Shown here piece after piece: positions 27,204-61,191 of a DNA stretch of 64,000 bases. Made by a program: the position numbers and the translations under genes. A model generated the notes under the pieces. It saw only the letters and a list, made by a program, of their open reading frames with translations, ran no database searches and was not told where the DNA came from. Positions within the stretch are counted from its first letter, which is position 1. Every line of letters starts with the position of its first letter. The DNA is from a bacterium (lineage in GTDB: Bacteria; Zhuqueibacterota; QNDG01; DSAB01), in assembly GCA_011388275.1 (NCBI GenBank), contig DSAB01000119.1, forward strand, positions 41,285 to 105,284, in the 5' to 3' direction.

Positions 27204-27229
27204 TTGATTCTCCGGTCTCAACTCTTTAA

Positions 27230-27258
27230 AACATAATAAAATGGAGAATAAAAATCAA
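27230..27258 (-). promoter_or_regulatory. Putative sigma70-type promoter for the PorV-like gene
   Basis: TTGATT (27258-27253), 17 nt, TATGTT (27235-27230). Confidence 0.45.
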
Positions 27259-27370
27259 CTGGTATTTTGCTGTTTCATACTGTTTTTGTATCTTTTACGG
27301 CCGTTTTGGTTCCGCGATATGGAGAACGGGAAATGGACTGCCCGAATCATTTCGGTTTTCAGTAAATTGT

Positions 27371-28333: not shown

Positions 28334-28348
28334 CGAATCTTTTCCGTT

Positions 28349-33813: not shown

Positions 33814-33817
33814 GACC

Positions 33818-35269
33818 TCAGGAATTCCTCCATTGAAATATTTGATTTCTTTGGCGCCATAAGATACGAATCATCTCGATCTCTTCAGAGCTGAAAGACC
33901 TGAGCAGCCACAGACAAAGACCGTAGACGATCAAGCCCGAAGGCACAACAATAAACAGTGAGACCGGCAAACAGATCACCAGACCCATAACTACCGCCGA
34001 TAATGCGGGACGAAAAAATACATCCCAAAAAGGAATTCTGAAAAGGACACGGGATACATAAAAGTTCTGAACCAGTAGAAAAAATACAATAGAGAGCAGG
34101 GTTGCCACGCCGGCTCCAAACGGTCCAAAACGGGGAATCAGCACCAAATTCAAACAAACATTGAAAACCGCACCCATCGTGTTGACCCACAGATCGATGC
34201 GCTGACGATGGCTGGCGATTAATCCGTTACCCAGAATGTTGGCAATCGGAAAGAAAACCATTGTCCAGATCAGCACCTGAAGGGTGGATTCCCCGCCGGA
34301 AAATTCGGCCTGGCCGTAAAGAAGAAGGAGTATTTCCCGTGCGCGCAGCGTGACAGCTACGGCCACGGGCAAAGAAAATATCAACAGATATTTTATCGAC
34401 CGAATACAGCTGATTTGAAAAGATTCCCGAGACTGAAGATAAAAATGGGAAATAACCGGGAATATAGCAACGATGTAACTGTTGGCCAGTTCCTTTCCGA
34501 TGCTCAGAAGACGATAGGCAGCCGAATACAGACCCACTGAAACGGTTCCCTGCATTTTTGACAGCATAAGGATGTCCGTATTCCAATAGACCATCACCAC
34601 AATCGACAGAGCGAAAAAAGTGGGAATCTGACGAAACAGATCGAAAAAAGATTCTCGGTTCAGTTCCCAGCGTATAGGCCCGGCCCCCCTGTGCACTAAA
34701 ATTAATCCCAGAATCATGGATATCAAATGAGACACAGCCACCGCTCCGATTACGGCAATGATCGGTCCACGAAGCACCAGAACGGTGATCCCCAGAATGA
34801 CCTTGATCAGAGTTTCGGAAATAAGAATAACAGCCGTATACTCCATGCGTTCAACACCCTGAAGCAAAGCCTGTGTGATCAGACTGATGGTATAACAGAT
34901 CAAAGCCGGCGCCAGAATCATCACGCCGTACAGAATGGCGGATTCATATTTCAGAAGTACGGCCGTGCCCGCCATAATCATGGAAAAGATCAAAGCCGAA
35001 ATTCCTCCCAGCAGATATCCGCCAGACAAGATTCTCCCCACCGAAGAGGGCCTGGCCGCAACATCACGAACAATGGGTCCATGCAGTCCCAGAGCCGAAA
35101 ATGTGGTAAAAAATGAAAACAATGTCAGAACCGTCGTATATTCGCCCAGACCCTGCGCGCCTGTCTGCCGCGATAGTACCAATACCAGCACCATCGCCAG
35201 AAAGGGGTTGGTGACCCGGGCCACTGAAAGGAAGTAGGTATTTCGAATCAATCTGACCGACCGCCTCAT
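33818..35269 (-). CDS. wzx: Wzx oligosaccharide flippase
   Basis: Many TM helices; D.LML......SVGLYSAAYRL; LIPRFG..GA..AT. Confidence 0.9.
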   Translation of the reverse strand: MRRSVRLIRNTYFLSVARVTNPFLAMVLVLVLSRQTGAQGLGEYTTVLTLFSFFTTFSALGLHGPIVRDVAARPSSVGRILSGGYLLGGISALIFSMIMAGTAVLLKYESAILYGVMILAPALICYTISLITQALLQGVERMEYTAVILISETLIKVILGITVLVLRGPIIAVIGAVAVSHLISMILGLILVHRGAGPIRWELNRESFFDLFRQIPTFFALSIVVMVYWNTDILMLSKMQGTVSVGLYSAAYRLLSIGKELANSYIVAIFPVISHFYLQSRESFQISCIRSIKYLLIFSLPVAVAVTLRAREILLLLYGQAEFSGGESTLQVLIWTMVFFPIANILGNGLIASHRQRIDLWVNTMGAVFNVCLNLVLIPRFGPFGAGVATLLSIVFFLLVQNFYVSRVLFRIPFWDVFFRPALSAVVMGLVICLPVSLFIVVPSGLIVYGLCLWLLRSFSSEEIEMIRILWRQRNQIFQWRNS

Positions 35270-36705
35270 GAATCCTCCTCAACGGGTGGATGCTCTTTCT
35301 GAAACCTGTTATCACCCAATCCAGCCGCCATGCCGGCCACAAGCCAAAGATGGTAATCCGAAATGCGTCCATCAAGTGACTCAAAAAACATTTGCAGGCA
35401 AAATACCAGCAATCCAATGGCCAGAGCTCTGGCCAATAAAGCAATGTTTTTATTCAACGAACGGGAAGCGCATATCAAACTTCTGAAAACAGCGGCAAGA
35501 AATACAAGAAAAGTGACAATGCCTGTGATTCCAAGTTCCGCCATTACCAGCAGATAGCGGTTATGCACAATCCATCGTTCCTGTGTCAGGAAAAAAGGTA
35601 CATAATCGGACATGATCAACGCATACACATTGGTTCCGGCACCAAAAACAGGATAAAAACGAAATATTTCCCAGGCCGACCGTATAAGCTGGAGCCGGTA
35701 CACCAGTGTCTCTGTTCCCTGGCCGAAGCGTGACCACAAAACATGCCCGAATACCAGTAATCCGGCGACTGCCGCGATTCCTGCTGCGGCAATCAATTTC
35801 CAGATTCCCCGATTCCGAAAATGAATACTAAAAAGGATCATCATGCCGATCGAGAAAGTCAGCCACGCTCCTCTCGTTTGGGTCAGAATCAAACCAATAA
35901 TTCCCATAGTCAGAGAAACAATCGGAAGCAAACGTTTGCCGGAACGGTTCATCAGTAAAAGCGTCAGCGGAAGCGGCAGCAGCGAGGCCATGTAACTGGC
36001 GGATACATTGGGCGATCCCGTGGTGCCGGCGGACCGGAATAACACTTCACCATAATTCTCGACGACTTCCAGTGCCGCTGTGGTAAAATTGGATTGCGCA
36101 ATGAACTGAACGATGCAAACGCCGCTCATAATAATCAGACAGCCCATCAACAGATTGCAAAACAACCTGTATCGACCTTCATAAGCGATGTGATTGGCCA
36201 CCAGAAAATACAGAAGAAAGACTTTGCCGTTTTGGACAACAGCAAACAAACTTAAACTCATATCCGGAGTGTTTAAAATGGAAAGCAGATGGGCGGCCAG
36301 AAACAATAACGCAGGCACTGACACCGAAGCATAGAACTGCATACGCTGCCTGCCCGAAGACATATGAAAAATCCAGATAAATATCAGAATGAAGACTGCG
36401 GCATCCGTAATGGTCAGCATGATACCATTGAACGTCCCCACATATTCACGGTATATCAAATGGATATTAAACTCCAGGGGTACGGCCAGCACAAGCATGG
36501 CCCATAACAGATCCCATGGCCTGCCTGTCAATTGAACGACGACCGGCCAAATTAACAGGCATGTCATCAAAACAAACATGGCAACGATCCATCGCTGGCT
36601 CAGGCCTCCCATTTTGAGACTTATCAGAGACATCATCAAAACCATAAGAACCATAAGAGCGAAAACAGCATGGCGTTCCAGCATTTTCTGCCCGTGCAGA
36701 TTCAC
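35266..36705 (-). CDS. Wzy polymerase / O-antigen ligase-family membrane protein
   Basis: Multi-TM; LTQTRGAWL; periplasmic loop ending P.FGAG.N...HN.YL....ELGITG. Confidence 0.82.
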   Translation of the reverse strand: MNLHGQKMLERHAVFALMVLMVLMMSLISLKMGGLSQRWIVAMFVLMTCLLIWPVVVQLTGRPWDLLWAMLVLAVPLEFNIHLIYREYVGTFNGIMLTITDAAVFILIFIWIFHMSSGRQRMQFYASVSVPALLFLAAHLLSILNTPDMSLSLFAVVQNGKVFLLYFLVANHIAYEGRYRLFCNLLMGCLIIMSGVCIVQFIAQSNFTTAALEVVENYGEVLFRSAGTTGSPNVSASYMASLLPLPLTLLLMNRSGKRLLPIVSLTMGIIGLILTQTRGAWLTFSIGMMILFSIHFRNRGIWKLIAAAGIAAVAGLLVFGHVLWSRFGQGTETLVYRLQLIRSAWEIFRFYPVFGAGTNVYALIMSDYVPFFLTQERWIVHNRYLLVMAELGITGIVTFLVFLAAVFRSLICASRSLNKNIALLARALAIGLLVFCLQMFFESLDGRISDYHLWLVAGMAAGLGDNRFQKEHPPVEEDS

Positions 36706-37595
36706 CTTCTGCCTCCCTTCTCATGGTTTTTCAGCAAATCGAATCGGCGCAATATTTTCTGAAGTTTACCCAGCCAATTCAGTGCGCCCCGAATCTTTGA
36801 CTTGAACATAAAATTCCCGTCATCCTTGAAAATCTGTATTCTGCGCAAATGATAGGGGCATGTCCTGTGTCTATTGAAACCCATATCCGTGGTACAGGCC
36901 GCTTGATAGTGATATTGAATAAAAAGCCGGCGAATAACGGATTCGCGTTTGCTATCCACTCGTCCTCCGCGAAGGGAATAGGGATAGGCGAAGTAACGGA
37001 CGACGCGTTTGAGTTTCTCCTCCAGGATTATTTTGGATCCGCCTATCTCTTTTTCCAAATCCTGAACCGGAATCAGCCCCAGCCGCGGATGAGTCATGGT
37101 ATGCGATCCTACGGTCACGACTGTTTCATCGATATTGCCGATCTGTTCCCAGGACATAACCTTTCGATTTGCTTGATGCTTCGAACACATTCTTTTTAGT
37201 GATCCCGATTCCTCTCCTCTGTTTTTGACGAAATCAACGGGAATAAAGAGGTGGGCGTGAAAACCGTATTTTATCAGCACGGGAACCACATGACGCTCGA
37301 AAGATTCGTATCCGTCGTCGAACGTCAAGACGACATTTCTTTTACGGTCCGATAGACGCCCGGAACCTTCCAGCCAGTCATCCAGAGTGATAACCTGACA
37401 ATGTTTATGTATGTATTCCATCTGATATTTGAATCGATCAAGACTTACGTCATACGACGTGCAGGGATCCTCGGCAATATGATGATAGGCCAGAATGATG
37501 CATCGCCTCCGTTCCTTTCGTTTCCATAAAAGTCCGTAAGCCGGCCAGAAAAGGATGCTGATTCCGGCCATGCCATACGTGTTCATTTTCCTCAT
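36702..37595 (-). CDS. CE4 polysaccharide deacetylase (IcaB/PgaB-like)
   Basis: ILAYHHI, LTFDDGY, GSHTMTHP, FAYPY. Confidence 0.9.
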   Translation of the reverse strand: MRKMNTYGMAGISILFWPAYGLLWKRKERRRCIILAYHHIAEDPCTSYDVSLDRFKYQMEYIHKHCQVITLDDWLEGSGRLSDRKRNVVLTFDDGYESFERHVVPVLIKYGFHAHLFIPVDFVKNRGEESGSLKRMCSKHQANRKVMSWEQIGNIDETVVTVGSHTMTHPRLGLIPVQDLEKEIGGSKIILEEKLKRVVRYFAYPYSLRGGRVDSKRESVIRRLFIQYHYQAACTTDMGFNRHRTCPYHLRRIQIFKDDGNFMFKSKIRGALNWLGKLQKILRRFDLLKNHEKGGRR

Positions 37596-38791
37596 CGGGT
37601 GACCTGCCTCCCCCTTCCGACCAGTGTATCAATGAGACGGAGATAATTCGACTTGTATCTTTCCCATCGATGAAAACGGAAAAACTGCTTTGCGTTCCGG
37701 ATCTGCGCCCGCCGAAGCGAAGGCGACCGGTACAGTTCGTAGATCGCACGGGCCATATCATCAGGGTCTTCAGGCCGGAAGAACCGAACCATTTGATCAT
37801 CGAAGTACCGTTTCGATGCGGTTGTTTCTGAAACCACGACAGGAAGCTCCATCGCCGCAAATTCCATAAGTTTGGTTGAAAGAGCCTCATCGGCAAACAT
37901 GCCTCCCTTTTTAGGAACCAGTCCGACATCGGCGTTTCTCATCCACTGCGGGACACTCTCCAGCGGTATGGAATGACCGGTAAAGCGAACATGTGAATTC
38001 AGGGCAAGTTCTTCGGCTTTCTGGCGCAGATACGACAGTTGGCTTCCATCGCCGACAATCTGAAACAAAATAGAAGGAATTTTTTCCTTGAGCATTGCCA
38101 CGGCTTCCAAGGCGATATCCACTCCGAAATGTTCAGCCAAATTTCCCGGATAAACAAGCGTAAACCTTCCTGACCTGATGGGTTTGAAACGTTCCGGGTT
38201 GAAAAGGGTGGTGTCCGGCACGTTCATCATGACCATACACCGATGGGCCGGTACGGAACGTTCGAGTTTTTTCTTCCAAATATCGGTCACAGTAATGACA
38301 TGGTGTGCAAAACAACAGGAGGCTTTTTCCACTTTCAGGAGGCCTCTGACGATGATGTGGTCCATCGTGACATTGAATTTTCTCGCATAAAATTCCGGAA
38401 CCAGATCATGAATATCCAGTATGAGTTTCGAACCGGTCATTCGCGGCAGCCAGGCAGCGAATATTTGGAAATCGGGGACGGAATGAACATGAACCACGTG
38501 ATATCGGTTTCGAACGTGAATACGGTTGAGAATCACCATGGAATGGAAAAAGAAACGAAACAGCCGCCATAAATAATCGAATGGATTCATCTCATTGTAT
38601 GCGCGTCCCATTATCTTGACCAGGCGGACTCCGTTCAGCTGTTTTTGATCGCCTAAAGGACCATCCTGCTTCAGACAAATGACATCCACTCTGTGTCCCG
38701 CACGGACCAGCGCTTCGGCATCCCGCCGGACACGGGTGTCCGATTCATAAAATGAATAGACCATCATGGCTATGCGCAAAGACGACTGCAT
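37592..38791 (-). CDS. GT4 glycosyltransferase
   Basis: DTRVRRDAEAL, LDIHDLVPEF, YPGNL...FG, STKLMEFAAMELPVV. Confidence 0.9.
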   Translation of the reverse strand: MQSSLRIAMMVYSFYESDTRVRRDAEALVRAGHRVDVICLKQDGPLGDQKQLNGVRLVKIMGRAYNEMNPFDYLWRLFRFFFHSMVILNRIHVRNRYHVVHVHSVPDFQIFAAWLPRMTGSKLILDIHDLVPEFYARKFNVTMDHIIVRGLLKVEKASCCFAHHVITVTDIWKKKLERSVPAHRCMVMMNVPDTTLFNPERFKPIRSGRFTLVYPGNLAEHFGVDIALEAVAMLKEKIPSILFQIVGDGSQLSYLRQKAEELALNSHVRFTGHSIPLESVPQWMRNADVGLVPKKGGMFADEALSTKLMEFAAMELPVVVSETTASKRYFDDQMVRFFRPEDPDDMARAIYELYRSPSLRRAQIRNAKQFFRFHRWERYKSNYLRLIDTLVGRGRQVTR

Positions 38792-38794
38792 GTT

Positions 38795-40246
38795 TCATCC
38801 TTCACGGTAAACAACGCGGGAATCCATCATTCGATGATGCCGTAGAGACTCCATGCACCGACGAAAGATCATATTCTGAAAAAACAATCTCTGGCCCCAT
38901 GAACTGGCGAACAGGCTGCCTGCCAACCGGCTCAGGAATCCCGTTTCCCCGATTATAAGCTGGACAGCCCTTCTCGTGACATCCTTTTCAATTCTTCTGG
39001 CCATTTTGAGCAATCTCTTTCTTTGCTCTCTGTTCAGTTCCGGGGTCTCGAATACGGGTTCGTTCTCATTCTCCGTGACACTGTTCAGATAAATTTCCGG
39101 AGACTTGATAAACGCATCCCGCTCCTGTATTATGTCATACAGTTCGGTACCCGGATAGGGAATCGGGTTATTCAAAATGACGCGGCGAACCGGATACTTC
39201 TGAACCAGCCGGAAACTGTCCATCACGTCATCCCAGGTCTCGAAGGGCATACCAAAAATACAGAACAGTTTGACATCGTATCCAAGATCGCAGGCTGTCC
39301 TGATCGCACGTTCGATCTGTTCGATGGATTCTCCCTTTTTATTGGCACGCAGCATACGGTCGTTGCCCCCATCCACACCAAATGCGATATAGTGAAATCC
39401 CACATCTTTCATGCGTTTAAGCAGCTTCCGATCCACCCGGTCCGCCCTCAGTCCGTTGGAACACCGGAATTCCGCATCGGTCAGTCCCCTTTTTTTAATT
39501 TCGTCACACAACTTCAGGACGCGATCTCTCGATAAAGTGAAGTTGTCGTCGTCAAAATTAAAAACACGATAGGATCTTCGGTGCCAATACTCGATCTCAT
39601 CGGCGACATGCGCGGGACTGCGCGGGCGAAATTTTTGAGTAATCATCCGGTTTGGACAAAATATACATTGCAGAGGGCACCCCCGGCTCGAATTGATGGG
39701 TATTTCTTTGATATAGCGATCCAGTTCGAATCCCTGATAGGTGGGAAACGGAATCGCATCAAGATCCGTTTGGGGTGCACGGTTTCCGTTGAACACAATC
39801 CCTTCCGGTTTCCGGTGAATAAGACCCCCGATCCGGTTGAAATGTTCTCCGCGGCAAAGTTCCACCAGCGTTTCTTCTCCTTCGTGAACCACACCGAAAT
39901 CAATCGACGGGCATCCTTCGAGCACCCGTTCCCGGCACACCGTCACATGTGGCCCTCCGGCCACAATCCCAACATGAGGGTAATGATCCTTGATCACCCG
40001 GATCATCTCATAGGTCTTCCTGTATTCCAGAGATACCATGCTGATGCCGATCAGGTCGGGCTGAAACCATTCGATCTTTCTGATCAGCCTCTTGAGGCTT
40101 CCTCCGAACCGCATATCCAGTACATCATAATGAATGTTATTCGCCAAAAGGGATTCCGCCAGATAACCCAGGTTTTGCGGCGGTCGGGCGGCTCCCAGAT
40201 AGCTGGAAGAAGGAGGGCTGATTAACAGAATCCGGTTATAGCGCAT
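38795..40246 (-). CDS. Cobalamin-binding radical SAM enzyme (class B methyltransferase-like)
   Basis: N-terminal B12-binding domain (PPQNLGYLA, GGPHVT, GEGE-like HEGEET); SRGCPLQCIFC; FDDDNFT. Confidence 0.9.
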   Translation of the reverse strand: MRYNRILLISPPSSSYLGAARPPQNLGYLAESLLANNIHYDVLDMRFGGSLKRLIRKIEWFQPDLIGISMVSLEYRKTYEMIRVIKDHYPHVGIVAGGPHVTVCRERVLEGCPSIDFGVVHEGEETLVELCRGEHFNRIGGLIHRKPEGIVFNGNRAPQTDLDAIPFPTYQGFELDRYIKEIPINSSRGCPLQCIFCPNRMITQKFRPRSPAHVADEIEYWHRRSYRVFNFDDDNFTLSRDRVLKLCDEIKKRGLTDAEFRCSNGLRADRVDRKLLKRMKDVGFHYIAFGVDGGNDRMLRANKKGESIEQIERAIRTACDLGYDVKLFCIFGMPFETWDDVMDSFRLVQKYPVRRVILNNPIPYPGTELYDIIQERDAFIKSPEIYLNSVTENENEPVFETPELNREQRKRLLKMARRIEKDVTRRAVQLIIGETGFLSRLAGSLFASSWGQRLFFQNMIFRRCMESLRHHRMMDSRVVYREG

Positions 40247-41006
40247 CAGGCACGCCTCCCTTTTTCAACCGATTATTGAGTTTTCGAACCTCATGAAACG
40301 GCATCGTCTTATAATGTTTCCCTTTTGTCCGAGACTTTATCGTGACAATTTGATGATCACGGACCTTCAAGACAGCGTCGGCCAGCAATTCAGCGCCACG
40401 AACAACGGCCCGGTCATTGATAGAATCCACGGTATCTCCGGGTCGAACAGTCAGCTTCTCGCGTATCACAACAGGGCCGGTATCTATTCCCGCGTCGACG
40501 AAATGCACACTCACGCCCGGACAATCTCCTTTCAGCAGCGCATAGGCGTTTGCACCCAGGCCCCGATATTCCGGAAGCCATCCGGGATGCGCGTTCAGGC
40601 AGCCCAATCGGGCTGTCTGGAATATTTCCGGCTTGAGAATAGGCGCCGACGCAATGACCAGCAAATCGGGCTTCAAGGAATTCAGCAGACGAATGCATTC
40701 CATTGAATTAAACAGCCCCACAGGAATCGACGGGATGCCCGCCCGCGAAGCAAGATCAAGAATCGTTTCGGATGATCTTCGCAGCCGCAGAGTCTGCCGG
40801 ACACGCCAGCAGGCGGACATTAAACCATCTTTCACGACTTTCCGCTTGAATCGATTCCACTTCTTCCGTCGGCTCTGTGCTTCATAGACCACAGCCTTGA
40901 CAGGTATCTTTCTTTCAAGAAAGGTTTTCATGACAATCCATCCGGCAGGATTATCCGGATAAGCCAATATAACCGTTGAGAATTCCTCAGAAATCGATGA
41001 CATCAT
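40236..41006 (-). CDS. N10-formyl-THF-dependent formyltransferase (Fmt-like)
   Basis: CLNAHPGWLPEYRG and HFVDAGIDTGP retain the N/H/D triad. ATG 41006 overlaps the psd-like stop. Confidence 0.85.
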   Translation of the reverse strand: MMSSISEEFSTVILAYPDNPAGWIVMKTFLERKIPVKAVVYEAQSRRKKWNRFKRKVVKDGLMSACWRVRQTLRLRRSSETILDLASRAGIPSIPVGLFNSMECIRLLNSLKPDLLVIASAPILKPEIFQTARLGCLNAHPGWLPEYRGLGANAYALLKGDCPGVSVHFVDAGIDTGPVVIREKLTVRPGDTVDSINDRAVVRGAELLADAVLKVRDHQIVTIKSRTKGKHYKTMPFHEVRKLNNRLKKGGVPDAL

Positions 41007-41821
41007 GAATCTCCGGACAGTGAAAATTGTGCCAGAATGGTTTCTCCCGCCCGGACCTTTTGACCTTTTTCCACTGTTAAAGTCAGATGCGGAAAAACCG
41101 GAATGACGATATCCACCTGTGATCCGAATACAATCCTGCCGGTACGCTGTCCTCTGTCGACCGATTCCCCGGCCCGGACATATGATCGGATACGGCGAAC
41201 CAGGCGTGAAGCAATCTGAACAACAGCCACCTGCCATTCTTTATGCTGAATAATTGTTGTGACCCGTTCGTTAAGAAAGACCGATTCCGTTCTTCTCAGA
41301 GACAGAAACGCGCCTGGAATATATTTGACCATGGTCACTCTCCCTGAAAGAGGCGCACGGTTGACATGAACATCCAATATTCTCATCTCAATGCCTATCA
41401 GCCAACCATCCTTTTGGCTGACAGGAGTGTGGACGAGTTCTTCCAGAATATGTTTATCCTTTTTCTTGGTTGCAATCGGGATTTGCCCCTTTCCGATGCG
41501 AACCACATACCGAACGATTCCATCCGCCGGAGAAACAATGATATCGGGTTCACGCGGTGTGGTTCGATTCGGATCCCTATAGAATCGAAACAGGATCACA
41601 GCGCCTATCCAAAAACACTGTAAAACGACGCTCAGTGCCACTATCCCCGTCAAAGTTATATTTGAAATCAGCGGAGAGCACAGATAAACCGTTCCTCCGC
41701 CGAGAAGACCGATCAACATACCGCCTGACGCTCCGATTTTCCAGCCCAAATTGAGTTTAAGAGCCAGTCCTGTGCAGATTACAATCCCTGTTATCAGATT
41801 CCATATCCATGGATTCGACAT
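41003..41821 (-). CDS. psd: Phosphatidylserine decarboxylase-like pyruvoyl enzyme with N-terminal TM helices
   Basis: FYRDPNR, IVSPADG, DVHVNRAP, NER, QIAS..VRRI, FGSQVD self-cleavage site. Start set at ATG 41821. Confidence 0.8.
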   Translation of the reverse strand: MSNPWIWNLITGIVICTGLALKLNLGWKIGASGGMLIGLLGGGTVYLCSPLISNITLTGIVALSVVLQCFWIGAVILFRFYRDPNRTTPREPDIIVSPADGIVRYVVRIGKGQIPIATKKKDKHILEELVHTPVSQKDGWLIGIEMRILDVHVNRAPLSGRVTMVKYIPGAFLSLRRTESVFLNERVTTIIQHKEWQVAVVQIASRLVRRIRSYVRAGESVDRGQRTGRIVFGSQVDIVIPVFPHLTLTVEKGQKVRAGETILAQFSLSGDS

Positions 41822-41822
41822 T

Positions 41823-43085
41823 TTAAAAACCTCTCTTTTTCCATAACGCGGCCAAAAGCAGCCATTCTCCGAAGAATGGAAGCGGATCCCGGAGCGACCA
41901 TACAGCAAACTCCTTTTTCCCCTTCATGGACTGTATGTATTGATTAATCCGCATGCGTCCCCGAAGTATTTCCAGAGCTGCTGTGGGAACATCCGTTGTC
42001 AGTCGTACCCACTTTTCAGCCGGCCTGAAACGAGTTTTGACATGCAATGCCTGACGGCCTGTATTCGGGCGAGAGTCGATAACCAGATCATGATAGACCA
42101 TCCAGGGAAGGTTCACGCCGGCTCCGACAGCCAAACTGTGCCAACCCCAGATTCTGGGGTTGATCTCAAGCATTTTGAATTGCTCATCACGCGGATCCCG
42201 TATGAATTCCACTTCGGCCAGTCCATAATAGTCAATGGACCTTAAAAATTTTTCTGATATTTTCTTCAGAAGGGGAATGTTGACGATCTCGACATAGGTG
42301 CTGGCCTGACCGAAATCCATGGGATGCTGGCGCAGCCTCTGTGCCGTGATACCAGCCACACTTTTTGTGTTCTTGAAAAATGGACAAAAAGAAAACAGAT
42401 TGGCCGCGACATCCGGTATCAACTCTTGAACAATGATTTCACTCGATGGAATAACTGCCGCCGCGGATGCATAGGCCCTTCGAAGTTCATCGCGACTATA
42501 CGCTGGAAAGACTTTCTTTCCCGTTTTCCGGAAAAACGGTCTCATGACCGCCGGCTTGACAACAGCCGGAAACGGTATGTTTGAATCTTCCAAATCATCG
42601 AACGATCCCGGAAAAAAAGTCTGTGGAATCGGGATACCGAGCTTGGCAGCCTGTTTATACGTTTCTCTTTTATCATAAACAAACGCAATGGATGACCAGT
42701 CCGGCGTCATAAGTCGAAAACAGCGGCTCAAAAGCTTGTGATTCCTAGATAAAAAATGAACGCTTTCATCATCCGTCGGATAAATAACAGCACCACGAAG
42801 AAGCGGTTTGTTTCCCCATTCAAGAAAACATTGAAGCGCCTGGGCCTCCATTCGAATATCGGGCATCTTCAGACTGCCGCTTAGGAATCTGGAAAATCGG
42901 GAGAGATTGGGTTCATGATCCGCCACGTAGACCCGAACTCCTTTGCATGCCAAAGCACGAACAGTTCCCAAACCCTGAAAATGTCCGCCAATCACAATGG
43001 CAGGCGCTTTTTCTTGCCGGTTTTTCACAGTATCACTCCCTCTGCGCTCATGCAAAACGGAATCAAAATACGTTCCAGCCGTCAT
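41823..43085 (-). CDS. ATP-grasp carboxylate-amine ligase (D-aspartate ligase-like)
   Basis: LGTVRALA..G, PTDDES, DKRETY, P.VVKP, IVQELIP, EVEFIRD.RD...KMLEINPR.WG. Confidence 0.85.
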   Translation of the reverse strand: MTAGTYFDSVLHERRGSDTVKNRQEKAPAIVIGGHFQGLGTVRALACKGVRVYVADHEPNLSRFSRFLSGSLKMPDIRMEAQALQCFLEWGNKPLLRGAVIYPTDDESVHFLSRNHKLLSRCFRLMTPDWSSIAFVYDKRETYKQAAKLGIPIPQTFFPGSFDDLEDSNIPFPAVVKPAVMRPFFRKTGKKVFPAYSRDELRRAYASAAAVIPSSEIIVQELIPDVAANLFSFCPFFKNTKSVAGITAQRLRQHPMDFGQASTYVEIVNIPLLKKISEKFLRSIDYYGLAEVEFIRDPRDEQFKMLEINPRIWGWHSLAVGAGVNLPWMVYHDLVIDSRPNTGRQALHVKTRFRPAEKWVRLTTDVPTAALEILRGRMRINQYIQSMKGKKEFAVWSLRDPLPFFGEWLLLAALWKKRGF

Positions 43086-45361
43086 TTCCCGGCTTCGATT
43101 TCATCGGAATAGGTCATATAATAGGAGTGATACCCATAGTAAGACTTCGGGTCCATGCCGTTCAGTACGGCCCCCAAAATAGTGGCGTCGACACTGTTCA
43201 GGAGTTCCAGTGAACGTCGAATGAACTGTTTCTTCGTTTCATTGACCCGCACAACCAGGACAACTCCATCCACAAAGGAAGCCAACACGGTTGCATCCGT
43301 TACCGGCAGAAGCGGAGGACTGTCCAGAATGACTATTCCGAAATGTTTTCGGGCTTCGTGTATGAATAACTGCATCTCCCTGGAACAAAGCAGTTCAGAG
43401 GCATTTTTCACCAGGGCTCCGGCCGGCATCAGAAACAGGTTTTTTACCGAAGTTTCGCGTATAACCTCTTTCCAATGCAATGCATGTCCCAGATGATGGG
43501 TCAACCCGTTTTTGCTCTGTGTTCCCAGAAACAGCATGTCGAGTACCGGCCTGCGCAGATCGCTGTCAACCAGCAAAGTTCGTACTCCTTTGTTGGCAAA
43601 AGTAATCGCCAGATTGGCGGATGTTGTGGATTTGCCTTCTGACGCTCCTGCACTGGTGATGAGAATCGCCCGGTTTTTCAATTTATTGTTTGTAAAATAG
43701 ATGGAGGTTCTTATCACCCGATAAGCCTCCGCAATGGATGAATATCCCTGACGATGCGTGAGCAGATGAGAAAAAATATCACGGGCCCGATTCACTTTGG
43801 ATTTCTCGGATCTTTTTGTTTTACCCCGTTTTTTCTCCGAGACGGTTGGAACCGTTCCGATGACACGAATTCCGAATTGGAACAAATCGCTTTCATCGTA
43901 TACCGTGTCCCGTAAATATTCCTGCCCATAGGCGTACCCGAATGCCAGAAGCACGCCGAAAAAACCGGCCAGCAGCAAAGTCAGTTTCTTTTTTGGAAAC
44001 ATCGCTTCACCCGGAGGAGCAGCCAGATCCACAACACGGATGATGTTCATCTGACCCGCCTCCCGGATTCGAGCTTCTTCATATTTTTCACGCAGCATGA
44101 TATACAATTTATTGTTTACCTGAACATCCCGTTCCAGTTTGGCCAGTTCACGGTCTTTATCCGGGATCGATTCCATTCTTTGAGTATATTCCGCCAGAAC
44201 CAGACGCAATTCGTTACGCCTGGCGAGATGGGATTTTTGCAATGTTTCCAGTTCCAGTATCTGTTCCATTAGAGTTTCAGATCGGCTCAGCGGGTTTATA
44301 CCTGCCATTCCTGAATTCACCAGCTTCCGGGTCTCTTCGATCACTCTTTGGTTAATTCCATTGAGACGGTCATCCATCTCTTTCAGCTTAACGTTTTGGC
44401 GTGTATCCAAACCCGCCCCGATGAGCTGAGATTCAAAAGCCGCCCTTCTGTTCATCAGTTCCGCACGTTCGTTTCTCAATCTGGACAATTCCGGTGTAGA
44501 CAATCGGCTCACATTCTCCACCAATGACCTTTGATTCTCGTCCAATTGAGCCTTTAAAAACGCGAGCTGTGTATCAACGGCTTCCAGATCGGTTTTCGTC
44601 TGTTTATAGACAGTTTCAAATTCGCTGATACGTTGAACAAGCTGTTCTGTTTCACTGTTCAGGGATACCACGCCATGAAATTTCTTGAAATTGGTCAATC
44701 GGGCTTCCGCTTCGGCGAGTTGGTGTTCCATTTCCATGAGTTTCTCTTCCAGAAACATCCTGGTTTTATTGACCTGGCCTTGCGTATCCGAGCGATGATA
44801 ATCCTGATAAGCCTGGATCCAGGCATTTACAATGACCGCCGCTTCCCAGGGTCTGGAAGCGACAGCACGCAATTCAACGATATCCGTATCGCGGCCGTAA
44901 ATGACTTTGGTTTGTGACTGAAAATCAGCACCCGCTTCCTGAAGTGTCAAAGGGCCTGAAGGTTGTTTTTCTTTTTTTCTGATACCCAGCCGGTTTCCAA
45001 TGCCTTCAGTCTTCTCCTGATCATTGCCCGCCCCCAAAATCACCAGCGAGTCCGCATAGGGGGATTCCTGCAAACGGTGAATGACATCCAGCGCCAGACT
45101 GTGACTCTGCAAAATAGCGACTTGATTCTTGATGAGATTTTTCTGAAAAAAAACATTTGGAAAATCAAAAATTTGTCCATGGAGGTCACCCTCCTGAATA
45201 GAAAGAGATGCCGAAGCCTGATAGACGGGCTTTGCGACTGTCAGAAAGATCACGGTAAGTGTAATAACCGCGATAAAAGTAATGATCGCCCCTTTCCCGT
45301 GTATTTTGAGAGGGCGAAACACTTCACCCAGGTCAGCCGTTTGTCTTTGTTTTTCATTCAT
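43082..45361 (-). CDS. wzc: Wzc polysaccharide co-polymerase / tyrosine autokinase
   Basis: Two TM helices flanking a coiled-coil periplasmic region; EAYRVIRT, TSAGASEGKST, VDSDLRRP, DSPP; C-terminal Tyr cluster YYGYHSYYMTY. Confidence 0.93.
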   Translation of the reverse strand: MNEKQRQTADLGEVFRPLKIHGKGAIITFIAVITLTVIFLTVAKPVYQASASLSIQEGDLHGQIFDFPNVFFQKNLIKNQVAILQSHSLALDVIHRLQESPYADSLVILGAGNDQEKTEGIGNRLGIRKKEKQPSGPLTLQEAGADFQSQTKVIYGRDTDIVELRAVASRPWEAAVIVNAWIQAYQDYHRSDTQGQVNKTRMFLEEKLMEMEHQLAEAEARLTNFKKFHGVVSLNSETEQLVQRISEFETVYKQTKTDLEAVDTQLAFLKAQLDENQRSLVENVSRLSTPELSRLRNERAELMNRRAAFESQLIGAGLDTRQNVKLKEMDDRLNGINQRVIEETRKLVNSGMAGINPLSRSETLMEQILELETLQKSHLARRNELRLVLAEYTQRMESIPDKDRELAKLERDVQVNNKLYIMLREKYEEARIREAGQMNIIRVVDLAAPPGEAMFPKKKLTLLLAGFFGVLLAFGYAYGQEYLRDTVYDESDLFQFGIRVIGTVPTVSEKKRGKTKRSEKSKVNRARDIFSHLLTHRQGYSSIAEAYRVIRTSIYFTNNKLKNRAILITSAGASEGKSTTSANLAITFANKGVRTLLVDSDLRRPVLDMLFLGTQSKNGLTHHLGHALHWKEVIRETSVKNLFLMPAGALVKNASELLCSREMQLFIHEARKHFGIVILDSPPLLPVTDATVLASFVDGVVLVVRVNETKKQFIRRSLELLNSVDATILGAVLNGMDPKSYYGYHSYYMTYSDEIEAGK

Positions 45362-46628
45362 GATAACGCCTTATAAAATCCCAAATTGTAACACCATCAA
45401 TGTCTCCGGTAACTGCCAGACAGCATTTTCGATTCTCAGGCCATCGCCAAATTCTCATCAGCGGACCTTGAACCGGCAAAGAGTAATCACCTGATAAGTC
45501 CCTTTTCAGTTTCATCTCGTCGGAAGGAAGCAGTACTGTGCTGTACTGCCGATGATTCATTAATTCATATGGATACCCTTCCTGCCTCATCCATGCTGTT
45601 ATATCCTGAGAGCAACCTGGATCGATTCCAACGATCGGATGCTCCTTTCCCGAGAATTTCCATGGAGTTCCTTGAACCGTAAAGTTTCCAGGCCCATCAC
45701 ATGTGTAACCTTTCGTTCCTTTGACCAGAAGAGTGGCCCGGCTGCTTCCCTCCAGGCAAATCTCCTTTATCCCCGAATCACTCTCTCTGATAATGAATTG
45801 AACGGAATCCCGTTCAATCCACCATTCTGCGATTTCCTGAAGAGATGCGATCCAGACATTTTCACTTTGAGCTTTTCGCAAAATCGTTTCCAAAGCGCGG
45901 TTGAATTGAAAATACCGTTCGGGATGCAGCTGCAGCACAAGACATTCTCCTGTCTGACAGGCCCGTTCCAGCATTCGGCTCCATACAGCTGCCAGTACTT
46001 CCTGTTTTCGTATTCCCAACCTTTCGATCAGAATATCGTCATCGGGCATAGCAACCGGTATTTCCACCATCTCCCCGATGAACCGAGGCAGGGATGCCGA
46101 ACCCGAATCCATCGGTTGATATGTTTCCAGAATGGTTTGAAAATTTTTCCAGCGGCTGCGTGAACATTTTCTTGAGGACAGGTTTTCCCAAAGAATGACT
46201 TCACTGCTGTCCCATCGGAAGCCCGCTTCCGCCAGCCATTCAATTCTGTGTTTGTCACGTCTCAAATAAGGGAATCTAAATCCTTCACACGGATAACCGG
46301 CTTTATTGAAAAGGGCCATCGCTTCCTGAAAATGCGACGCGTTCTGAGTACGATCCATCATTGTATAATCCACGTGCCGTAACCCATGGATCGCCAAAAC
46401 AGCCCCCTGCTTCATCAACCTTTGAAAAAGGGACGGATTTTTATCCAGCACAACGGCTGTGGTCGGAAATGTCGGTTTGGCCTGATAGCGTTCCATTAGA
46501 TCCATAAATTGAATGACCGATCGGCTGAATCGTCTTTTTCCCAATCCGTATCGGTACAATATGGAAAAAACACGCCCCAGGTTATTTGCAAACGATCTCG
46601 TACTCAGGCGTTTGACCAATTGCTCCAT
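45354..46628 (-). CDS. CE4/NodB-fold polysaccharide deacetylase-like protein, apparently circularly permuted
   Basis: PTFPTTA, LAIHGLRH, GFRFPYL, EIPV, LHPE near the N-terminus; the motif-1-like WPENRKCCLAVTGDID is at the extreme C-terminus. Confidence 0.72.
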   Translation of the reverse strand: MEQLVKRLSTRSFANNLGRVFSILYRYGLGKRRFSRSVIQFMDLMERYQAKPTFPTTAVVLDKNPSLFQRLMKQGAVLAIHGLRHVDYTMMDRTQNASHFQEAMALFNKAGYPCEGFRFPYLRRDKHRIEWLAEAGFRWDSSEVILWENLSSRKCSRSRWKNFQTILETYQPMDSGSASLPRFIGEMVEIPVAMPDDDILIERLGIRKQEVLAAVWSRMLERACQTGECLVLQLHPERYFQFNRALETILRKAQSENVWIASLQEIAEWWIERDSVQFIIRESDSGIKEICLEGSSRATLLVKGTKGYTCDGPGNFTVQGTPWKFSGKEHPIVGIDPGCSQDITAWMRQEGYPYELMNHRQYSTVLLPSDEMKLKRDLSGDYSLPVQGPLMRIWRWPENRKCCLAVTGDIDGVTIWDFIRRYHE

Positions 46629-46653
46629 CGATCCGGTCCTTCCTTCTTTGGGT

Positions 46654-47640
46654 TTATATGGAATGGTATCCCATCGCCAATGCCCTGACTTTCTTGCCGT
46701 TTATACCTCTCAGCCAATCATGCGTCATGACCAGTCCTTTCTGCATATTGGTCGTTGGAGCCCATCGCAGCATGCGTCTTATCTTTTCAATGTTCAGAAC
46801 TCTTCTACGGATATTATCAATATCCCGCTTATCGACATACACGGGATCGGCCTTATATTGAGCAATTTTCATCATAGTTGAAGACAAATCATAGATACTC
46901 GTCTCTTTTCCCGAACTGACATTAAAAACCTCTCCGACCGCTTTGGGACTTAATGCGGCCAGCAAGGTGGCTTCCACCACATCGGAAACGTAGGTGAAAT
47001 CCCGAGTCTGATCACCGTCGCCGTGAATATGCGGCGGCTGGCCTTGCAAAATCCAGTCGAAAAATTTTGAAATGACCCCGCAATATGGGTTTTGAGGAGA
47101 TTGATTGATTCCATAAACATTTGAAAACCGCATGACAACCGTGGGCACTCCATATGATTCATAAAATGCCGAACAAAAATTTTCTCCCGAAAGCTTGCTG
47201 GCCGCATATGGGCTGAGTGTACTGATACGATCATCTTCATTGATGGGCAAGTATTTCGGATTTCCATACACCGAAGCGGAAGAGGAATACACAACGCGCT
47301 CGACACCGTATTTTTTCGCGGCCAGAAGCACTGTAAACGTTCCGCCTGAATTGACCTTGAAATCCAGCAAAGGCGATACGGTTGACACAATGATATTTCG
47401 GACCGCCAGATGAAAAACAATATCGGCCCTTTTCACCAGTCGATCGACCAATTGCGCGTTGGTTACAGTACCCTCTATAAAATTGATGTACTTCAGGCAG
47501 TCGATATTCTCTTTTTGTCCTGTAAGCAAATCGTCGAGGACGGTCACATCCGCCCCTTCTTTGACCAGCGCGGACACCAGGTTTGATCCGATGAATCCAG
47601 CCCCCCCGGTCACCAGGATTCTCTTATTACGAAAACGCAT
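46654..47640 (-). CDS. NAD-dependent nucleotide-sugar epimerase/dehydratase (extended SDR)
   Basis: TGGAGFIGS, SSASVYG, YAASK, RFSNVYG, RDFTYV.D. Confidence 0.93.
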   Translation of the reverse strand: MRFRNKRILVTGGAGFIGSNLVSALVKEGADVTVLDDLLTGQKENIDCLKYINFIEGTVTNAQLVDRLVKRADIVFHLAVRNIIVSTVSPLLDFKVNSGGTFTVLLAAKKYGVERVVYSSSASVYGNPKYLPINEDDRISTLSPYAASKLSGENFCSAFYESYGVPTVVMRFSNVYGINQSPQNPYCGVISKFFDWILQGQPPHIHGDGDQTRDFTYVSDVVEATLLAALSPKAVGEVFNVSSGKETSIYDLSSTMMKIAQYKADPVYVDKRDIDNIRRRVLNIEKIRRMLRWAPTTNMQKGLVMTHDWLRGINGKKVRALAMGYHSI

Positions 47641-47680
47641 CAGACAACCTCTTCATTTAATGAATTGTTTGATCTCATTC

Positions 47681-48454
47681 TCAATACACATCCCTCATGG
47701 ACAAGACATAAGGAATGGTCATTAAAATAATTTTTAAATCCAGCAGCAAATTCCAATGGTCAACATACCAGAGATCATAAAGGATGGATTCTTCGTAATT
47801 CTCCGGTGTCAGTCTGAGATTGATTTTGGACCAACCGGTCAGCCCCGGCTTGACTTCAAGTCTGCGGAAATACCAGGGCTTATAGGCCTGTACCTCATAT
47901 ACCGGATGAGGTCTGGGTCCTACAAGACTCATCCGTCCGCTTAAAATATTGATCATCTGCGGCAATTCATCCAAACTGGTTGCACGCAAAAGCGCACCAA
48001 CAGGGGTCACGTATGATTGTACATGGTTGATGTACCGTTCCAATAAATCCGGCTTCGATTCCGCTCCGATTCCTTCATGCAATAGATACCGAATATAGGC
48101 TTTGTGGTCTTTCTGCGAATCTGTATGAAACATGGTGCGGAACTTATAAATTAAAAAAGATCTTCCTCTGAGTCCAACCCGCTCCTGTCGAAAGAATACC
48201 GGGCCCGGTGAACTCAACTTGACAGTGGTTGAAACCAGAAGCAGCAAAGGCCATGCTGCCAGCAAAAAAAACATTGAGAAAGAAAAATCCATCAAACGTT
48301 TGACTCCCAATAGAAAACCGGCAAAACTCTTTTCCTGTAAGCTATCGGCAGAATGAGGTGTTTCATCCATGATCTGGCTGAATGAAATCCCCCGTGTATA
48401 ATCCATTGCCGGCAATGATTCAGTTCGCATAGCGTAAAACCGTTCTCCATTCAA
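47681..48454 (-). CDS. Initiating polyprenyl-phosphate sugar-1-phosphate transferase (monotopic PGT)
   Basis: KRLMD, FFRQERVG..G..F.IYKFRTM, LDELPQ..N..G.MSLVGPRP, KPGLTGW, DLWYV. Confidence 0.93.
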   Translation of the reverse strand: MNGERFYAMRTESLPAMDYTRGISFSQIMDETPHSADSLQEKSFAGFLLGVKRLMDFSFSMFFLLAAWPLLLLVSTTVKLSSPGPVFFRQERVGLRGRSFLIYKFRTMFHTDSQKDHKAYIRYLLHEGIGAESKPDLLERYINHVQSYVTPVGALLRATSLDELPQMINILSGRMSLVGPRPHPVYEVQAYKPWYFRRLEVKPGLTGWSKINLRLTPENYEESILYDLWYVDHWNLLLDLKIILMTIPYVLSMRDVY

Positions 48455-48467
48455 TCAAAGGTTGAGT

Positions 48468-49154
48468 TTATGCAAAACGATATCCCAACCCATGAATGGT
48501 TTGTATGTATTGTGAGTTGTTGCCGTCTCCACCCAATTTCTCACGCAGCCTTTTTACATGAACATCAACGGTTCGGTCCGTCACAAAGGCGCTCTTTCCC
48601 CACACTTTCTCCAATATCTCTTCTCTTGAAAAAACATAATCCCTTTTCGAGGCCAGCAAATACAAAAGTTTGAACTGTGTATAGGTAAGATCCAGATACT
48701 GCTGATTTTTATGGACGGCCTGACTGTCCAGATTAATCTCAATATCCTTAATTTTCAGTATCTTTGGCGTGTTGCCGACCATATCGATCCTGCGGACAAT
48801 GGCCTTTACCTTGGCCACTAATTCATCCGCTTCAGATATATCGTGAAAACAATCATCGGCTCCCCCATTTTCCATTGCCACAATACGCTCATCGGTTTTT
48901 TTATTCTCTGTGATCAAAATCAGAGCGGTTTGACTGCACTCATTTTGTATAACCGAAGTCAATTTTTTCATCTTCTCTCCAACAAAATCCCAGTCGACAA
49001 TCATGGCCTGATAGAATATTAATCTGAGATTATTGATGGCCGTTCTGACATCCATTGTGCAGAAAACCTCAAAACCGGATCGAATGAATGCGTGTTCGAT
49101 GGACTTGGTTTTGGCATTTCGATCCATCAGCAGAAGGATATTTTTCTTTTCCAT
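48468..49154 (-). CDS. OmpR/PhoB-family response regulator with an atypical receiver
   Basis: wHTH: LTYTQFKLL, FSREEIL..VWG, RTVDVHVKRLREKL, IQTIHGLGYRF. The receiver keeps the phospho-Asp (IVDW) but lacks the KP motif. ATG 49154 follows GGGGTGA. Confidence 0.88.
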   Translation of the reverse strand: MEKKNILLLMDRNAKTKSIEHAFIRSGFEVFCTMDVRTAINNLRLIFYQAMIVDWDFVGEKMKKLTSVIQNECSQTALILITENKKTDERIVAMENGGADDCFHDISEADELVAKVKAIVRRIDMVGNTPKILKIKDIEINLDSQAVHKNQQYLDLTYTQFKLLYLLASKRDYVFSREEILEKVWGKSAFVTDRTVDVHVKRLREKLGGDGNNSQYIQTIHGLGYRFA

Positions 49155-56103: not shown

Positions 56104-56115
56104 AGGTTTCCTTTT

Positions 56116-56400
56116 CTAATTTAACAGCTCTCGATAAAACGGTGTGCTATCAGTGATGAGCCCTGTCATCTTTCTCATGTCTGAACAGATTGCACAGGAC
56201 TCCCGATTCGATTGAGCCTCTTTCAGGAGTTTTCTATAAAATGTTTTCCTCAGAGACCTTAACTTTCTCGTATCGACGCCTTTTCGAAGAAATACGGATA
56301 CGATATCGACAAACTCCATGGTCGATAGAATTCGGGATTGAGAGAATAGTTCAAAAGTCCGAAAGAAACTTTGTCTATCAAGTGTCGAATTGTGACTCAT
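56116..56400 (-). CDS. Small basic hypothetical protein (94 aa) immediately upstream of clpC
   Basis: ATG 56400 after a purine-rich stretch; ends 12 nt before the clpC ATG; contains CAIC; no recognised family. Confidence 0.6.
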   Translation of the reverse strand: MSHNSTLDRQSFFRTFELFSQSRILSTMEFVDIVSVFLRKGVDTRKLRSLRKTFYRKLLKEAQSNRESCAICSDMRKMTGLITDSTPFYRELLN

Positions 56401-56535
56401 TTTTCTATGCCCTTTAAACCGCAATCGATTTACAGTCAACATGAATGATTGCACGCAATATTCCCACGGCCGACATCTATAAAACCACTGAACCCCGGTA
56501 TTCGGTTCCAGAAATGTACGGAAACAGATTGAATA

Positions 56536-56566
56536 TTGCAAACTTTCATTAGCATTAACTTTGCAA
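56536..56566. promoter_or_regulatory. Imperfect 10-N11-10 inverted repeat, possible operator upstream of the clpC operon
   Basis: TTGCAAACTT (56536-56545) and AACTTTGCAA (56557-56566), 9/10 complementary. Confidence 0.3.
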
Positions 56567-56617
56567 ATTTCACGCCAATCGAAAAGAGATATCCAATATC
56601 GGAATGATATACGGTCA

Positions 56618-58554: not shown

Positions 58555-60087
58555 TCAGTGTTTCTCCGAAGCGGATGAATCGATCTCCGGCCGCATTTGT
58601 GGAAAAAGAATGACATCCCGGATTGAAGCGGAATCGGTTAAAAGCATCACGAGCCGGTCGATTCCGATACCCAACCCCCCCATGGGCGGCATACCGTATT
58701 CCATGGCGCCCAGATAATCTTCATCGATGACCATGGCCTCTTCATCTCCACGGTCACGCAGCTTTGCCTGATTCTCAAATCGTTCACGCTGGTCAAGGGG
58801 GTCGTTCAGCTCGCTGAATGCGTTGCAGATCTCCCTGCCCATGATATATCCCTCAAAACGCTCCACCACCCCCGAAAGATTCCGGTGTTTCCTGGCAAGG
58901 GGAGAAATTTCGACAGGATAATCCATGATAAAAGTCGGCTGCAGAAGATGGGGTTCGACACACTGACTGAAAATGGCGTCCAGTATGGCCCCTTCGGTGA
59001 ACATTTTTTCTTTTTGAATTCCTTTTTCTGCAGCCGCTTTCTTCAGTGTATTCAAGTCATCGCCCGAAAGGTCCATGCCGGTATGTTTTTTAATGGCTTC
59101 GAAATAGGAAAGCCGCTTCCATGGAGGTGTGAAATCGATATGAGAATTGCCATAAGGGATTCTCAGGTCTCCATGAACATCACGGCAAATGGATGCCAGC
59201 ATATCCTCGACCAGATTCATCATGAAATGATAATCCTCAAAAGCGACATAGAGTTCCATCATGGTAAATTCGGGATTGTGATCACGATCCATCCCTTCGT
59301 TTCTGAAATCCTTGGAAATTTCATATACCCCTTCAAATCCTCCAACGATCAACCGCTTCAGATACAGCTCATCGGCGATACGCAGATACAGAGTCATGTC
59401 CAGACGGTGATGATGTGTGGTAAATGGACGGGCAAAAGCGCCTCCATACAGGGGTTGAAGAATGGGTGTTTCGACTTCGAGATATCCTTTACCTTCCAGA
59501 TACCGGCGCATGGATGAAACAATTTTCGAACGTTTCCGAAATACCTCCATGACATCGGGGTTGACCAATAAATCGACGTATCTTTTTCGATATCGCGATT
59601 CCTTGTCCGCAAACTGATCATAGATGATTTTTTCATCATCCTGTATTTTCTCTTTGACGATCGGAAGCGGCCGCAGTGATTTAGCCAAAACGGTCAGTGA
59701 TTCGATAGAAATGGTGATTTCACCGGTTCTGGTGGTAAATACCGTGCCTTCAACACCGATAATATCTCCAAGATCCAACAGTTTAAAAATATCGAATGTT
59801 TTCTCATCGACCTGATCTTTTCTTGAATAAATCTGAATTCGCCCGCTGTCATCCTGCAAATGCGCGAACCCGGCTCCACCCATGCGACGAAGAGACATGA
59901 TTCTTCCGGCCGCCGAAACCCGCGGCTTCTCCTCACCCTCTGACAAATCCAGAGAAAGAATATCGGCGGCTTTATGCGTTCGGTCGAACCGGCAGCCATA
60001 TGGGTTGACGCCCATGGATTCCATTTTCTTCAGCTTTTCAAGTCGTGTATTTCTCAGTTCATCAAAGAGATCCAACCGTTCCTCCAT
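58555..60087 (-). CDS. lysS: Lysine-tRNA ligase (class II)
   Basis: OB-fold (AGRIMS.R.MG), YLRIADELYLKRL, FRNEG.D..HNPEFT, GLGIGIDRL. Confidence 0.97.
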   Translation of the reverse strand: MEERLDLFDELRNTRLEKLKKMESMGVNPYGCRFDRTHKAADILSLDLSEGEEKPRVSAAGRIMSLRRMGGAGFAHLQDDSGRIQIYSRKDQVDEKTFDIFKLLDLGDIIGVEGTVFTTRTGEITISIESLTVLAKSLRPLPIVKEKIQDDEKIIYDQFADKESRYRKRYVDLLVNPDVMEVFRKRSKIVSSMRRYLEGKGYLEVETPILQPLYGGAFARPFTTHHHRLDMTLYLRIADELYLKRLIVGGFEGVYEISKDFRNEGMDRDHNPEFTMMELYVAFEDYHFMMNLVEDMLASICRDVHGDLRIPYGNSHIDFTPPWKRLSYFEAIKKHTGMDLSGDDLNTLKKAAAEKGIQKEKMFTEGAILDAIFSQCVEPHLLQPTFIMDYPVEISPLARKHRNLSGVVERFEGYIMGREICNAFSELNDPLDQRERFENQAKLRDRGDEEAMVIDEDYLGAMEYGMPPMGGLGIGIDRLVMLLTDSASIRDVILFPQMRPEIDSSASEKH

Positions 60088-60095
60088 GTCTCATT

Positions 60096-61191
60096 TTATG
60101 AATACTCAAGCAGATAACCCTTTACAAATGGATCCAGAAAACCGTCCATGACTTTCTGAATATCCGATGTTTCGACATTGGTACGATGATCTTTTACCAG
60201 AGTATAGGGCTGAAATACATATGAACGGATCTGGCTCCCCCAGGCGATCTCTTTTTTATTTTTTTCAATCGCCTCCAGGCGTTTTGACTCTTCTTCCTTC
60301 TTCTTCTGTTATAGACGGGACAGGAGAATTTTCATCGCGTTTGCTTTATTCTGATGCTGTGACCGTTCACTTTGACATTGTACAACCAGACCCGTTGGAA
60401 TGTGGGTTATTCGAACCGCTGAACTGGTCTTGTTGACATGCTGTCCTCCGGCACCCGAGGCTCGATACGTATCAATACGCAGATCGGAAGGATTGATATT
60501 GACTTCAATATTCTCTTCCACTTCCGGATAGACGAAAACCGATGCAAAAGAGGTGTGACGCCGTTTGTTGGAATCAAAGGGTGATATTCGCACTAAACGA
60601 TGCACACCGGCTTCGGCCTTCAGATATCCATAGGCATATTCGCCGGAGACCTCCAGGGTGACGCTTTTCAATCCCGCTTCTTCTCCGGACTGCAAATCAA
60701 GCACGTCAAAAGAAAAACCTTTTTGCTGAAAGAAGCGGGTATACATGCGGAAAAGCATTTCGGCCCAATCCTGGGATTCGGTACCACCCGCCCCGGGATG
60801 AATCGTCACGATCGCGTCAGAAGAATCATCCTCACCCCCAAGCATCCTCCTCAATTCCAGATTGTCCAGATCTTTTTCGATTTGATCCGCATCCCTGGAA
60901 AGATCCGCAAGAGCCGCCTCATCTTCCTCTTCTTCGACCATACCGAACATAAGAAGGGACTCCTCGATTTTTTCATGAAGGGAGTCCCAGGCATCGGTCC
61001 AGTCTTTTAAATTGTTTATCTCTTTAAGAACCGCCTGAGCTTCTTCCTGATTATTCCAGAAATCGGATAAAGCGCTTTGAGCCTGTAGTTTCTCGAGACG
61101 ATTTTTTCGGGCATCGATGTCAAAGATGCCTCCGTAATTTTTCCAGCCGGTCCAGCGATTCCTCAAGTCGTTCTCGCAACTCTGCAGCCAT
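60096..61191 (-). CDS. prfB: Peptide chain release factor 2, with programmed +1 frameshift and an extra in-frame TAA at 60311-60309
   Basis: Frame 0: ATG 61191, [23 protein letters not shown], then CTT TGA C. +1 frame carries SPF (ISPFDS) and GGQ. After SRL-TAA the frame continues QKKKEEE...[23 protein letters not shown]...MDG.LD.F to TAA at 60098-60096. Confidence 0.93.
61119..61133 (-). other. prfB programmed +1 ribosomal frameshift signal
   Basis: CGGAGG CAT CTT TGA C: internal SD-like GGAGG (61133-61129) and slippery CTTTGAC (61125-61119), matching the canonical RF2 signal. Confidence 0.95.

Follow-up and report, generated by a model that had tools for sequence, protein, structure and literature searches.

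Does the in-frame stop codon inside the release-factor gene prfB of this bacterium reflect something that the organism does, such as recoding or the loss of an essential factor, or does it belong to one assembly of its genome? In the window, by which we mean the whole 64,000-nt stretch of DNA that was analyzed, prfB lies on the minus strand at 61191..60096. The first-pass annotation had described an in-frame TAA within this gene followed by 70 sense codons, and the window does contain exactly this: the stop is found at 60311..60309 on the minus strand in the context ...TCC CGT CTA TAA CAG AAG AAG AAG GAA..., it constitutes codon 294 of a 364-residue protein, and it aligns to the Tyr of the 'KLYQRR' motif in solved RF2 chains.

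The architecture of the gene was established from its translation and from similarity searches. Translation in frame 0 meets a TGA after 23 codons, and RF2 resumes in the +1 frame, which spans 61121 to 60099. At this junction we find the autoregulatory +1 frameshift cassette of prfB, GGAGGCATCTTTGAC, at 61133..61119, in which the TGA (61122..61120) is an RF2-specific stop with C at +4. An SD-like element together with CTT TGA C in prfB is known as an autoregulatory +1 frameshift element (PMC12421855), and the identical cassette is present in the prfB of the sister species described below. The features of the locus are as follows.

61123..61191, minus strand: frame-0 segment of prfB, ATG plus 22 codons, closing on the slippery CTT (translation; tblastn of residues 1-23)
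61119..61133, minus strand: +1 frameshift cassette, made up of the SD-like element GGAGG, the 3-nt spacer CAT, CTT, TGA and a final C
60312..61121, minus strand: +1-frame body of prfB, residues 24-293, with the PCRF (PF03462) and RF-1 (PF00472) domains
60099..60308, minus strand: 70 intact RF2 codons, residues 295-364, base-for-base equal to the intact alleles
60096..60098, minus strand: true prfB stop, TAA with A at +4, 8 nt 5' of the lysS ATG (60087)
58555..60087, minus strand: lysS, 510 aa, with a TGA stop, directly 3' of prfB and apparently in one operon with it

Both functional motifs of the factor, the SPF stop-codon recognition tripeptide at residue 203 (60584..60576) and the catalytic GGQ at residue 248 (60449..60441), are encoded 5' of the internal TAA. 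Read through the stop, the gene yields a full-length RF2 of 364 residues that matches solved RF2 chains with E = 4.6e-120, the best of them (9fy1_8) aligning over residues 3-360 and RF2 chains scoring above RF1 chains; the intact product matches both Pfam families. Leaving the internal stop aside, the gene is an ordinary prfB whose +1 frameshift is of the classic RF2-sensing kind. Two details of its 3' end differ from their earlier description. The second TAA, which closes the same frame at 60098..60096, had been placed 9 nt before lysS and is separated from it by a spacer that measures 8 nt, and of the two stops that were both said to carry C at +4, only the internal one does (TAA-C), the terminal one being TAA-A. 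As a side observation on the downstream gene, the JGI call for lysS starts at 60087 (510 aa), and the ENA gene caller begins it 4 codons later, at 60075, giving 506 aa.

To place the stop in the context of the species, we compared the window with three independent public assemblies of the same genome, which were found via exact-protein matches and flanking genes: the JGI metagenome 3300022547 (contig Ga0212126_1000003, 264,690 bp), ENA ERZ1742330 (NODE_5, 181,484 bp), and Logan SRR7787789_16 (90,856 bp). Over the 63,230 of the 64,000 window bases compared with JGI, ENA and Logan, we observe zero gaps and five differing sites. Among these three assemblies, prfB is covered by JGI and ENA only, and both encode an intact 356-aa RF2, with CTT TAC (Leu-Tyr) in place of the CTA TAA of the window. 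The five sites, with bases given on the gene strand, are listed here.

60312: A in the window, T in JGI and ENA; CTA versus CTT, synonymous at Leu293
60309: A in the window, C in JGI and ENA; TAA versus TAC, turning Tyr294 into a stop
31385: G in the window, T in JGI, ENA and Logan; TTG versus TTT, F106L in an unrelated 387-aa gene
5444: T in the window, C in Logan alone and thus private to Logan; Ala versus Val in a 132-aa hypothetical protein
6560: T in the window, C in JGI alone and thus private to JGI; Leu versus Phe in a PASTA-domain protein

Only 60312, 60309 and 31385 are private to the window over the compared bases, and the other assemblies carry zero or one private SNP each (5444 in Logan, 6560 in JGI). 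With so few differences in total and two of them just 3 nt apart, 60312 and 60309 cannot be independent and amount to one local event, which leaves two events over 64 kb that set the window apart from its siblings. The earlier notion of a single-base error needs amending, two clustered bases having turned CTT TAC into CTA TAA. Transversions account for all three changes private to the window, C/T transitions for the one SNP private to Logan and the one private to JGI; in so small a sample, the transversion-only pattern leans, if slightly, towards an artefact over natural variation. Positions 5444 and 6560 themselves have the appearance of natural micro-diversity among the other assemblies. The gene that carries 31385 (30539..31702, minus strand) encodes a product with only faint Pec_lyase/SQHop_cyclase matches, and an exact public protein lookup returned no record of the window's 387-aa product with Leu106.

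The surroundings were annotated along with the locus. All ORFs of at least 180 aa that match a public gene call are on the minus strand (51 genes), giving a uniform orientation over 64 kb. A large surface-polysaccharide biosynthesis cluster extends over ~27,000..48,500 on the same strand, with the following among its members.

43082..45361, minus strand: Wzc-like tyrosine-kinase/co-polymerase
38795..40246, minus strand: B12-binding radical SAM enzyme
35266..36705, minus strand: Wzy_C polymerase
33818..35269, minus strand: flippase

The cluster also holds several GT4 glycosyltransferases, an ATP-grasp protein, a PS-decarboxylase-like protein, a formyltransferase, two polysaccharide deacetylases, a UDP-GlcNAc 2-epimerase and a methyltransferase. 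Gene calls diverge at two places where the DNA does not: in the clpB-lolD interval (56104..56617), JGI calls a 141-aa protein with no Pfam match and ENA a 60-aa protein on identical DNA, and for the ORF at 7150-8568 the public calls start later (445 aa) with no sequence difference.

Outside this genome, the closest distinct relative is a sister species represented by Logan SRR7615342_390717, whose RF2 is 90% identical and in which the spoIID-prfB-lysS order is kept. At the site in question it reads CTT TAC CAG. Since the sister and the other assemblies agree on CTT TAC, this is the ancestral sequence, from which CTA TAA is derived by two changes. The first-pass annotation had held that a Tyr codon in close relatives would speak against recoding, and with the comparison now made, the sister species, JGI and ENA all carry TAC. 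The description of the position as a conserved Tyr stands for the closest RF2 homologues, of which 122 of 122 have Tyr and one sequence alone, the truncated JGI product P0121, ends there; it weakens with distance, the residue being Tyr in 66 of 81 distant loci and another sense residue in 15. Of these genomic loci, one is that of the sister and 80 come from GTDB species at 51-59% identity; at position 294 they use TAC (46), TAT (20) or other sense codons (15), with no stop among them. Named relatives come no closer than ~60-65% identity, the nearest being Calditrichota and KSB1-type bacteria. Judged from these alignments, Tyr294 is strongly, if not universally, conserved.

The sequence behind the stop retains the marks of a working gene. 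Compared with the sister, the tail shows 22 synonymous and 9 nonsynonymous codon differences, a ratio that matches the 67 synonymous and 24 nonsynonymous differences in the 253 compared codons before the stop; historically, the tail has experienced normal purifying selection, no different from that on the remainder of prfB. Relative to the intact alleles, no secondary damage is found in the tail (60308..60099). The sequence 3' of the TAA shows neither the further lesions nor the relaxed selection of a decaying pseudogene (an identical tail; 22:9 versus 67:24). As the tail carries no added change, a real mutation, if there was one, must be very recent. In sum, the allele is private, TAC is ancestral, and no other damage accompanies it.

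How costly the loss of these residues would be depends on the need for RF2, the sole reader of UGA. Among the 51 genes of the window, 24 end in TGA (lysS included), 20 in TAA (prfB included) and 7 in TAG, and the earlier remark that RF2 is needed here for many genes ending in TGA is borne out by these 24 of 51. By tblastn, there is no second release-factor homologue in the 64-kb window.

Against this background, we weighed whether the TAA could be read as sense. The more far-reaching proposal, put forward as an option in the first-pass annotation, is programmed UAA readthrough by a near-cognate tRNA-Tyr or a suppressor tRNA, serving as a second release-factor-sensing checkpoint in RF2 synthesis; if real, it would extend a textbook autoregulatory circuit by a further layer, prfB then undergoing two recoding events. 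It can draw on the frame being intact 3' of the stop, on the single third-position change that separates a Tyr codon from TAA and makes tRNA-Tyr near-cognate, and on the C at +4, a context shared by only 1 of the 20 genuine TAA stops in the window. The rarity of TAA-C, however, is equally expected from a random change of TAC-CAG to TAA-CAG. Moreover, the stop is not conserved within the species, the codon being a sense codon in JGI, ENA, the sister, the 122 close homologues and the 81 genomic loci, and the sequence downstream of it is identical in the alleles that carry TAC. A 141-nt segment spanning the stop and its 3' flank shows no stimulatory RNA structure (z = 0.05 versus shuffles), and the whole 64-kb window contains no tRNA gene and no Rfam element. 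At its basal level, UAA readthrough in bacteria falls short by orders of magnitude of what the supply of an abundant essential factor would take. The checkpoint logic itself is undermined by the identity of the codon: UAA is recognized by both RF1 and RF2, TGA alone being specific to RF2 (PMC12421855), so that an internal TAA could not report the level of RF2 and RF1 would terminate there regardless. In-frame stops have been accepted as real, as opposed to sequencing errors, when present in at least two independent genomes (PMC7918605), and the internal TAA does not recur in this way. We accordingly abandon the checkpoint, regarding programmed readthrough as very unlikely. An altered genetic code, with UAA as a sense codon for Tyr, is less probable still, to the point of being negligible: nothing but the placement of the TAA at a Tyr position speaks for it, whereas near-identical genomes carry TAC at codon 294, no other gene is interrupted, all other ORFs match gene calls on the other assemblies, and reassignment of UAA is ruled out by the 20 window genes, prfB itself among them, that use TAA as their terminal stop.

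The stop allele can be traced beyond the window. At 90% identity, this RF2 falls into a protein cluster of three: an intact 356-aa form (Logan and ENA), an intact 356-aa form (JGI), and a 285-aa form ending in ...LSRL (P0121), which is encoded on one JGI/IMG contig of 181,527 bp, presumably the one from which the window was taken. Exact scans for the surrounding sequence with both variable bases left open gave no further carrier of either allele in genome_contigs or metagenome_contigs, collections that evidently lack these samples. An edit of the window text alone is ruled out by the presence of this truncated product in a public protein collection; the stop thus belongs to a deposited assembly and is not peculiar to the text of the window. 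The contig bearing TAA (JGI/IMG, 181,527 bp) forms a near-identical pair with the contig of ENA ERZ1742330 (181,484 bp), which bears TAC, and a second such pair is formed by the JGI 3300022547 contig (264,690 bp) and a Logan/ENA contig of 264,847 bp. This pairing suggests shared read sets, which two pipelines assembled separately and with discordant results at codon 294. If the same read set does stand behind both paired contigs, the discrepancy arose either within one sample or from the pipeline.

The decision between an artefact and a real allele is made on indirect arguments, namely that RF2 is essential, that JGI and ENA lack the stop although they cover prfB, that the spectrum consists of transversions only and that the contigs are paired in length. 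Taking these together, we infer that the TAA probably arose when the consensus of one assembly took a path through erroneous or minority reads, in keeping with the earlier judgment that an assembly error or minor allele was the most parsimonious option, JGI, ENA and the sister all reading TAC. Codon 294 in the organism would then be TAC (Tyr) and prfB would be functional; in the one metagenome assembly that has CTA TAA instead of CTT TAC, the consensus would have taken the erroneous or minority path through a single small bubble. The dominant living population would have a genotype without the stop, and no readthrough, recoding or extra autoregulatory layer would be involved. The k-mer coverage of the ENA assembly, ~65x, complicates this picture, as at such a depth a random error should not reach the consensus and the TAA-bearing reads may therefore be real molecules; the two-base change also fits a genuine multi-nucleotide mutation. 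Hence the possibility, which we hold to be doubtful though worth serious consideration, that the TAA is a real and very recent prfB null allele, created by one multi-nucleotide mutation and common in the population of one sample. Its carriers would be without functional RF2 from this copy, forming a dead-end lineage or relic DNA, or they would survive because of another prfB in the genome or because polyploid cells retain wild-type copies. Since the truncated product P0121 is among the gene calls of the deposited assembly, the TAA has the backing of at least one read set's consensus, and there is genuine micro-diversity among the assemblies (5444, 6560, 31385). However, with RF2 the only reader of a stop codon that ends 24 of 51 window genes, and with 70 conserved residues lost, strong selection against such an allele is to be expected; JGI, ENA and the sister species lack it, the window offers no second release-factor gene, and every change private to the window is a transversion. 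A variant of the same idea, in which CTA-TAA is a genuine haplotype, abundant in one natural sample, whose carriers survive either on enough full-length RF2 from near-cognate tRNA-Tyr reading of the weak TAA-C or by polyploid wild-type copies, seems to us improbable in the extreme; if true, it would constitute a natural tolerated nonsense allele in an essential translation factor.

Two further ideas about the change were dropped. An origin by quasi-palindrome or template switching, examined by eye, would rely on the C-to-A change extending CTG...CAG to CTGT...ACAG, a gain of one base pair that is too weak to carry the proposal. Selection of the new TATAAC hexamer as a -10 box for lysS is unsupported and implausible given the cost of RF2 loss.

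Returning to the consensus-path explanation, the alignments at hand indicate that the stop is unlikely to be a property of the organism. The lesson is rather one of data quality, in that a clustered two-base discrepancy makes an essential gene look like a pseudogene, as in the 285-aa JGI/IMG call, and stops seen in a single assembly should be checked against sibling assemblies before a biological reading is attempted. For annotation, we recommend an intact prfB entry with a programmed +1 frameshift in which residue 294 is Tyr.

Several known systems provide a frame for this locus. In plants, eRF1 is autoregulated by stop-codon readthrough combined with NMD (PMC5397192), which resembles the proposed checkpoint in making the synthesis of a release factor dependent on readthrough of a stop that the factor recognizes. 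The plant system differs in being eukaryotic, in having a conserved site and in relying on a single omnipotent release factor; bacterial UAA is also read by RF1, and the plant logic therefore does not carry over. With the conserved prokaryotic in-frame stops (PMC7918605), the prfB stop shares its position inside an otherwise intact coding sequence under purifying selection, but it occurs in one of the three same-genome assemblies covering the site and in none of the relatives. A closer parallel is offered by 34 prfA 'pseudogene' cases, isolated stops in single genomes for which sequencing error and true pseudogene were inseparable without more genomes (PMC12421855). Like them, the present case is a disabling lesion in an essential release-factor gene, confined to one assembly, at an unshared position and lacking conserved recoding elements; unlike them, it has two further assemblies of the same genome over the site, which settle the matter in favor of the intact codon. 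Finally, the canonical prfB of the E. coli type (PMC12421855) is matched in the GGAGG element, the 3-nt spacer and the CTT TGA C after a 23-codon leader, as well as in the PCRF and RF-1 domains, the SPF and GGQ motifs, and lysS directly downstream. The extra internal TAA is no part of that canonical system and is common to no relative, and when codon 294 is TAC, as in the other assemblies, the prfB described here differs from the canonical gene in nothing of substance.
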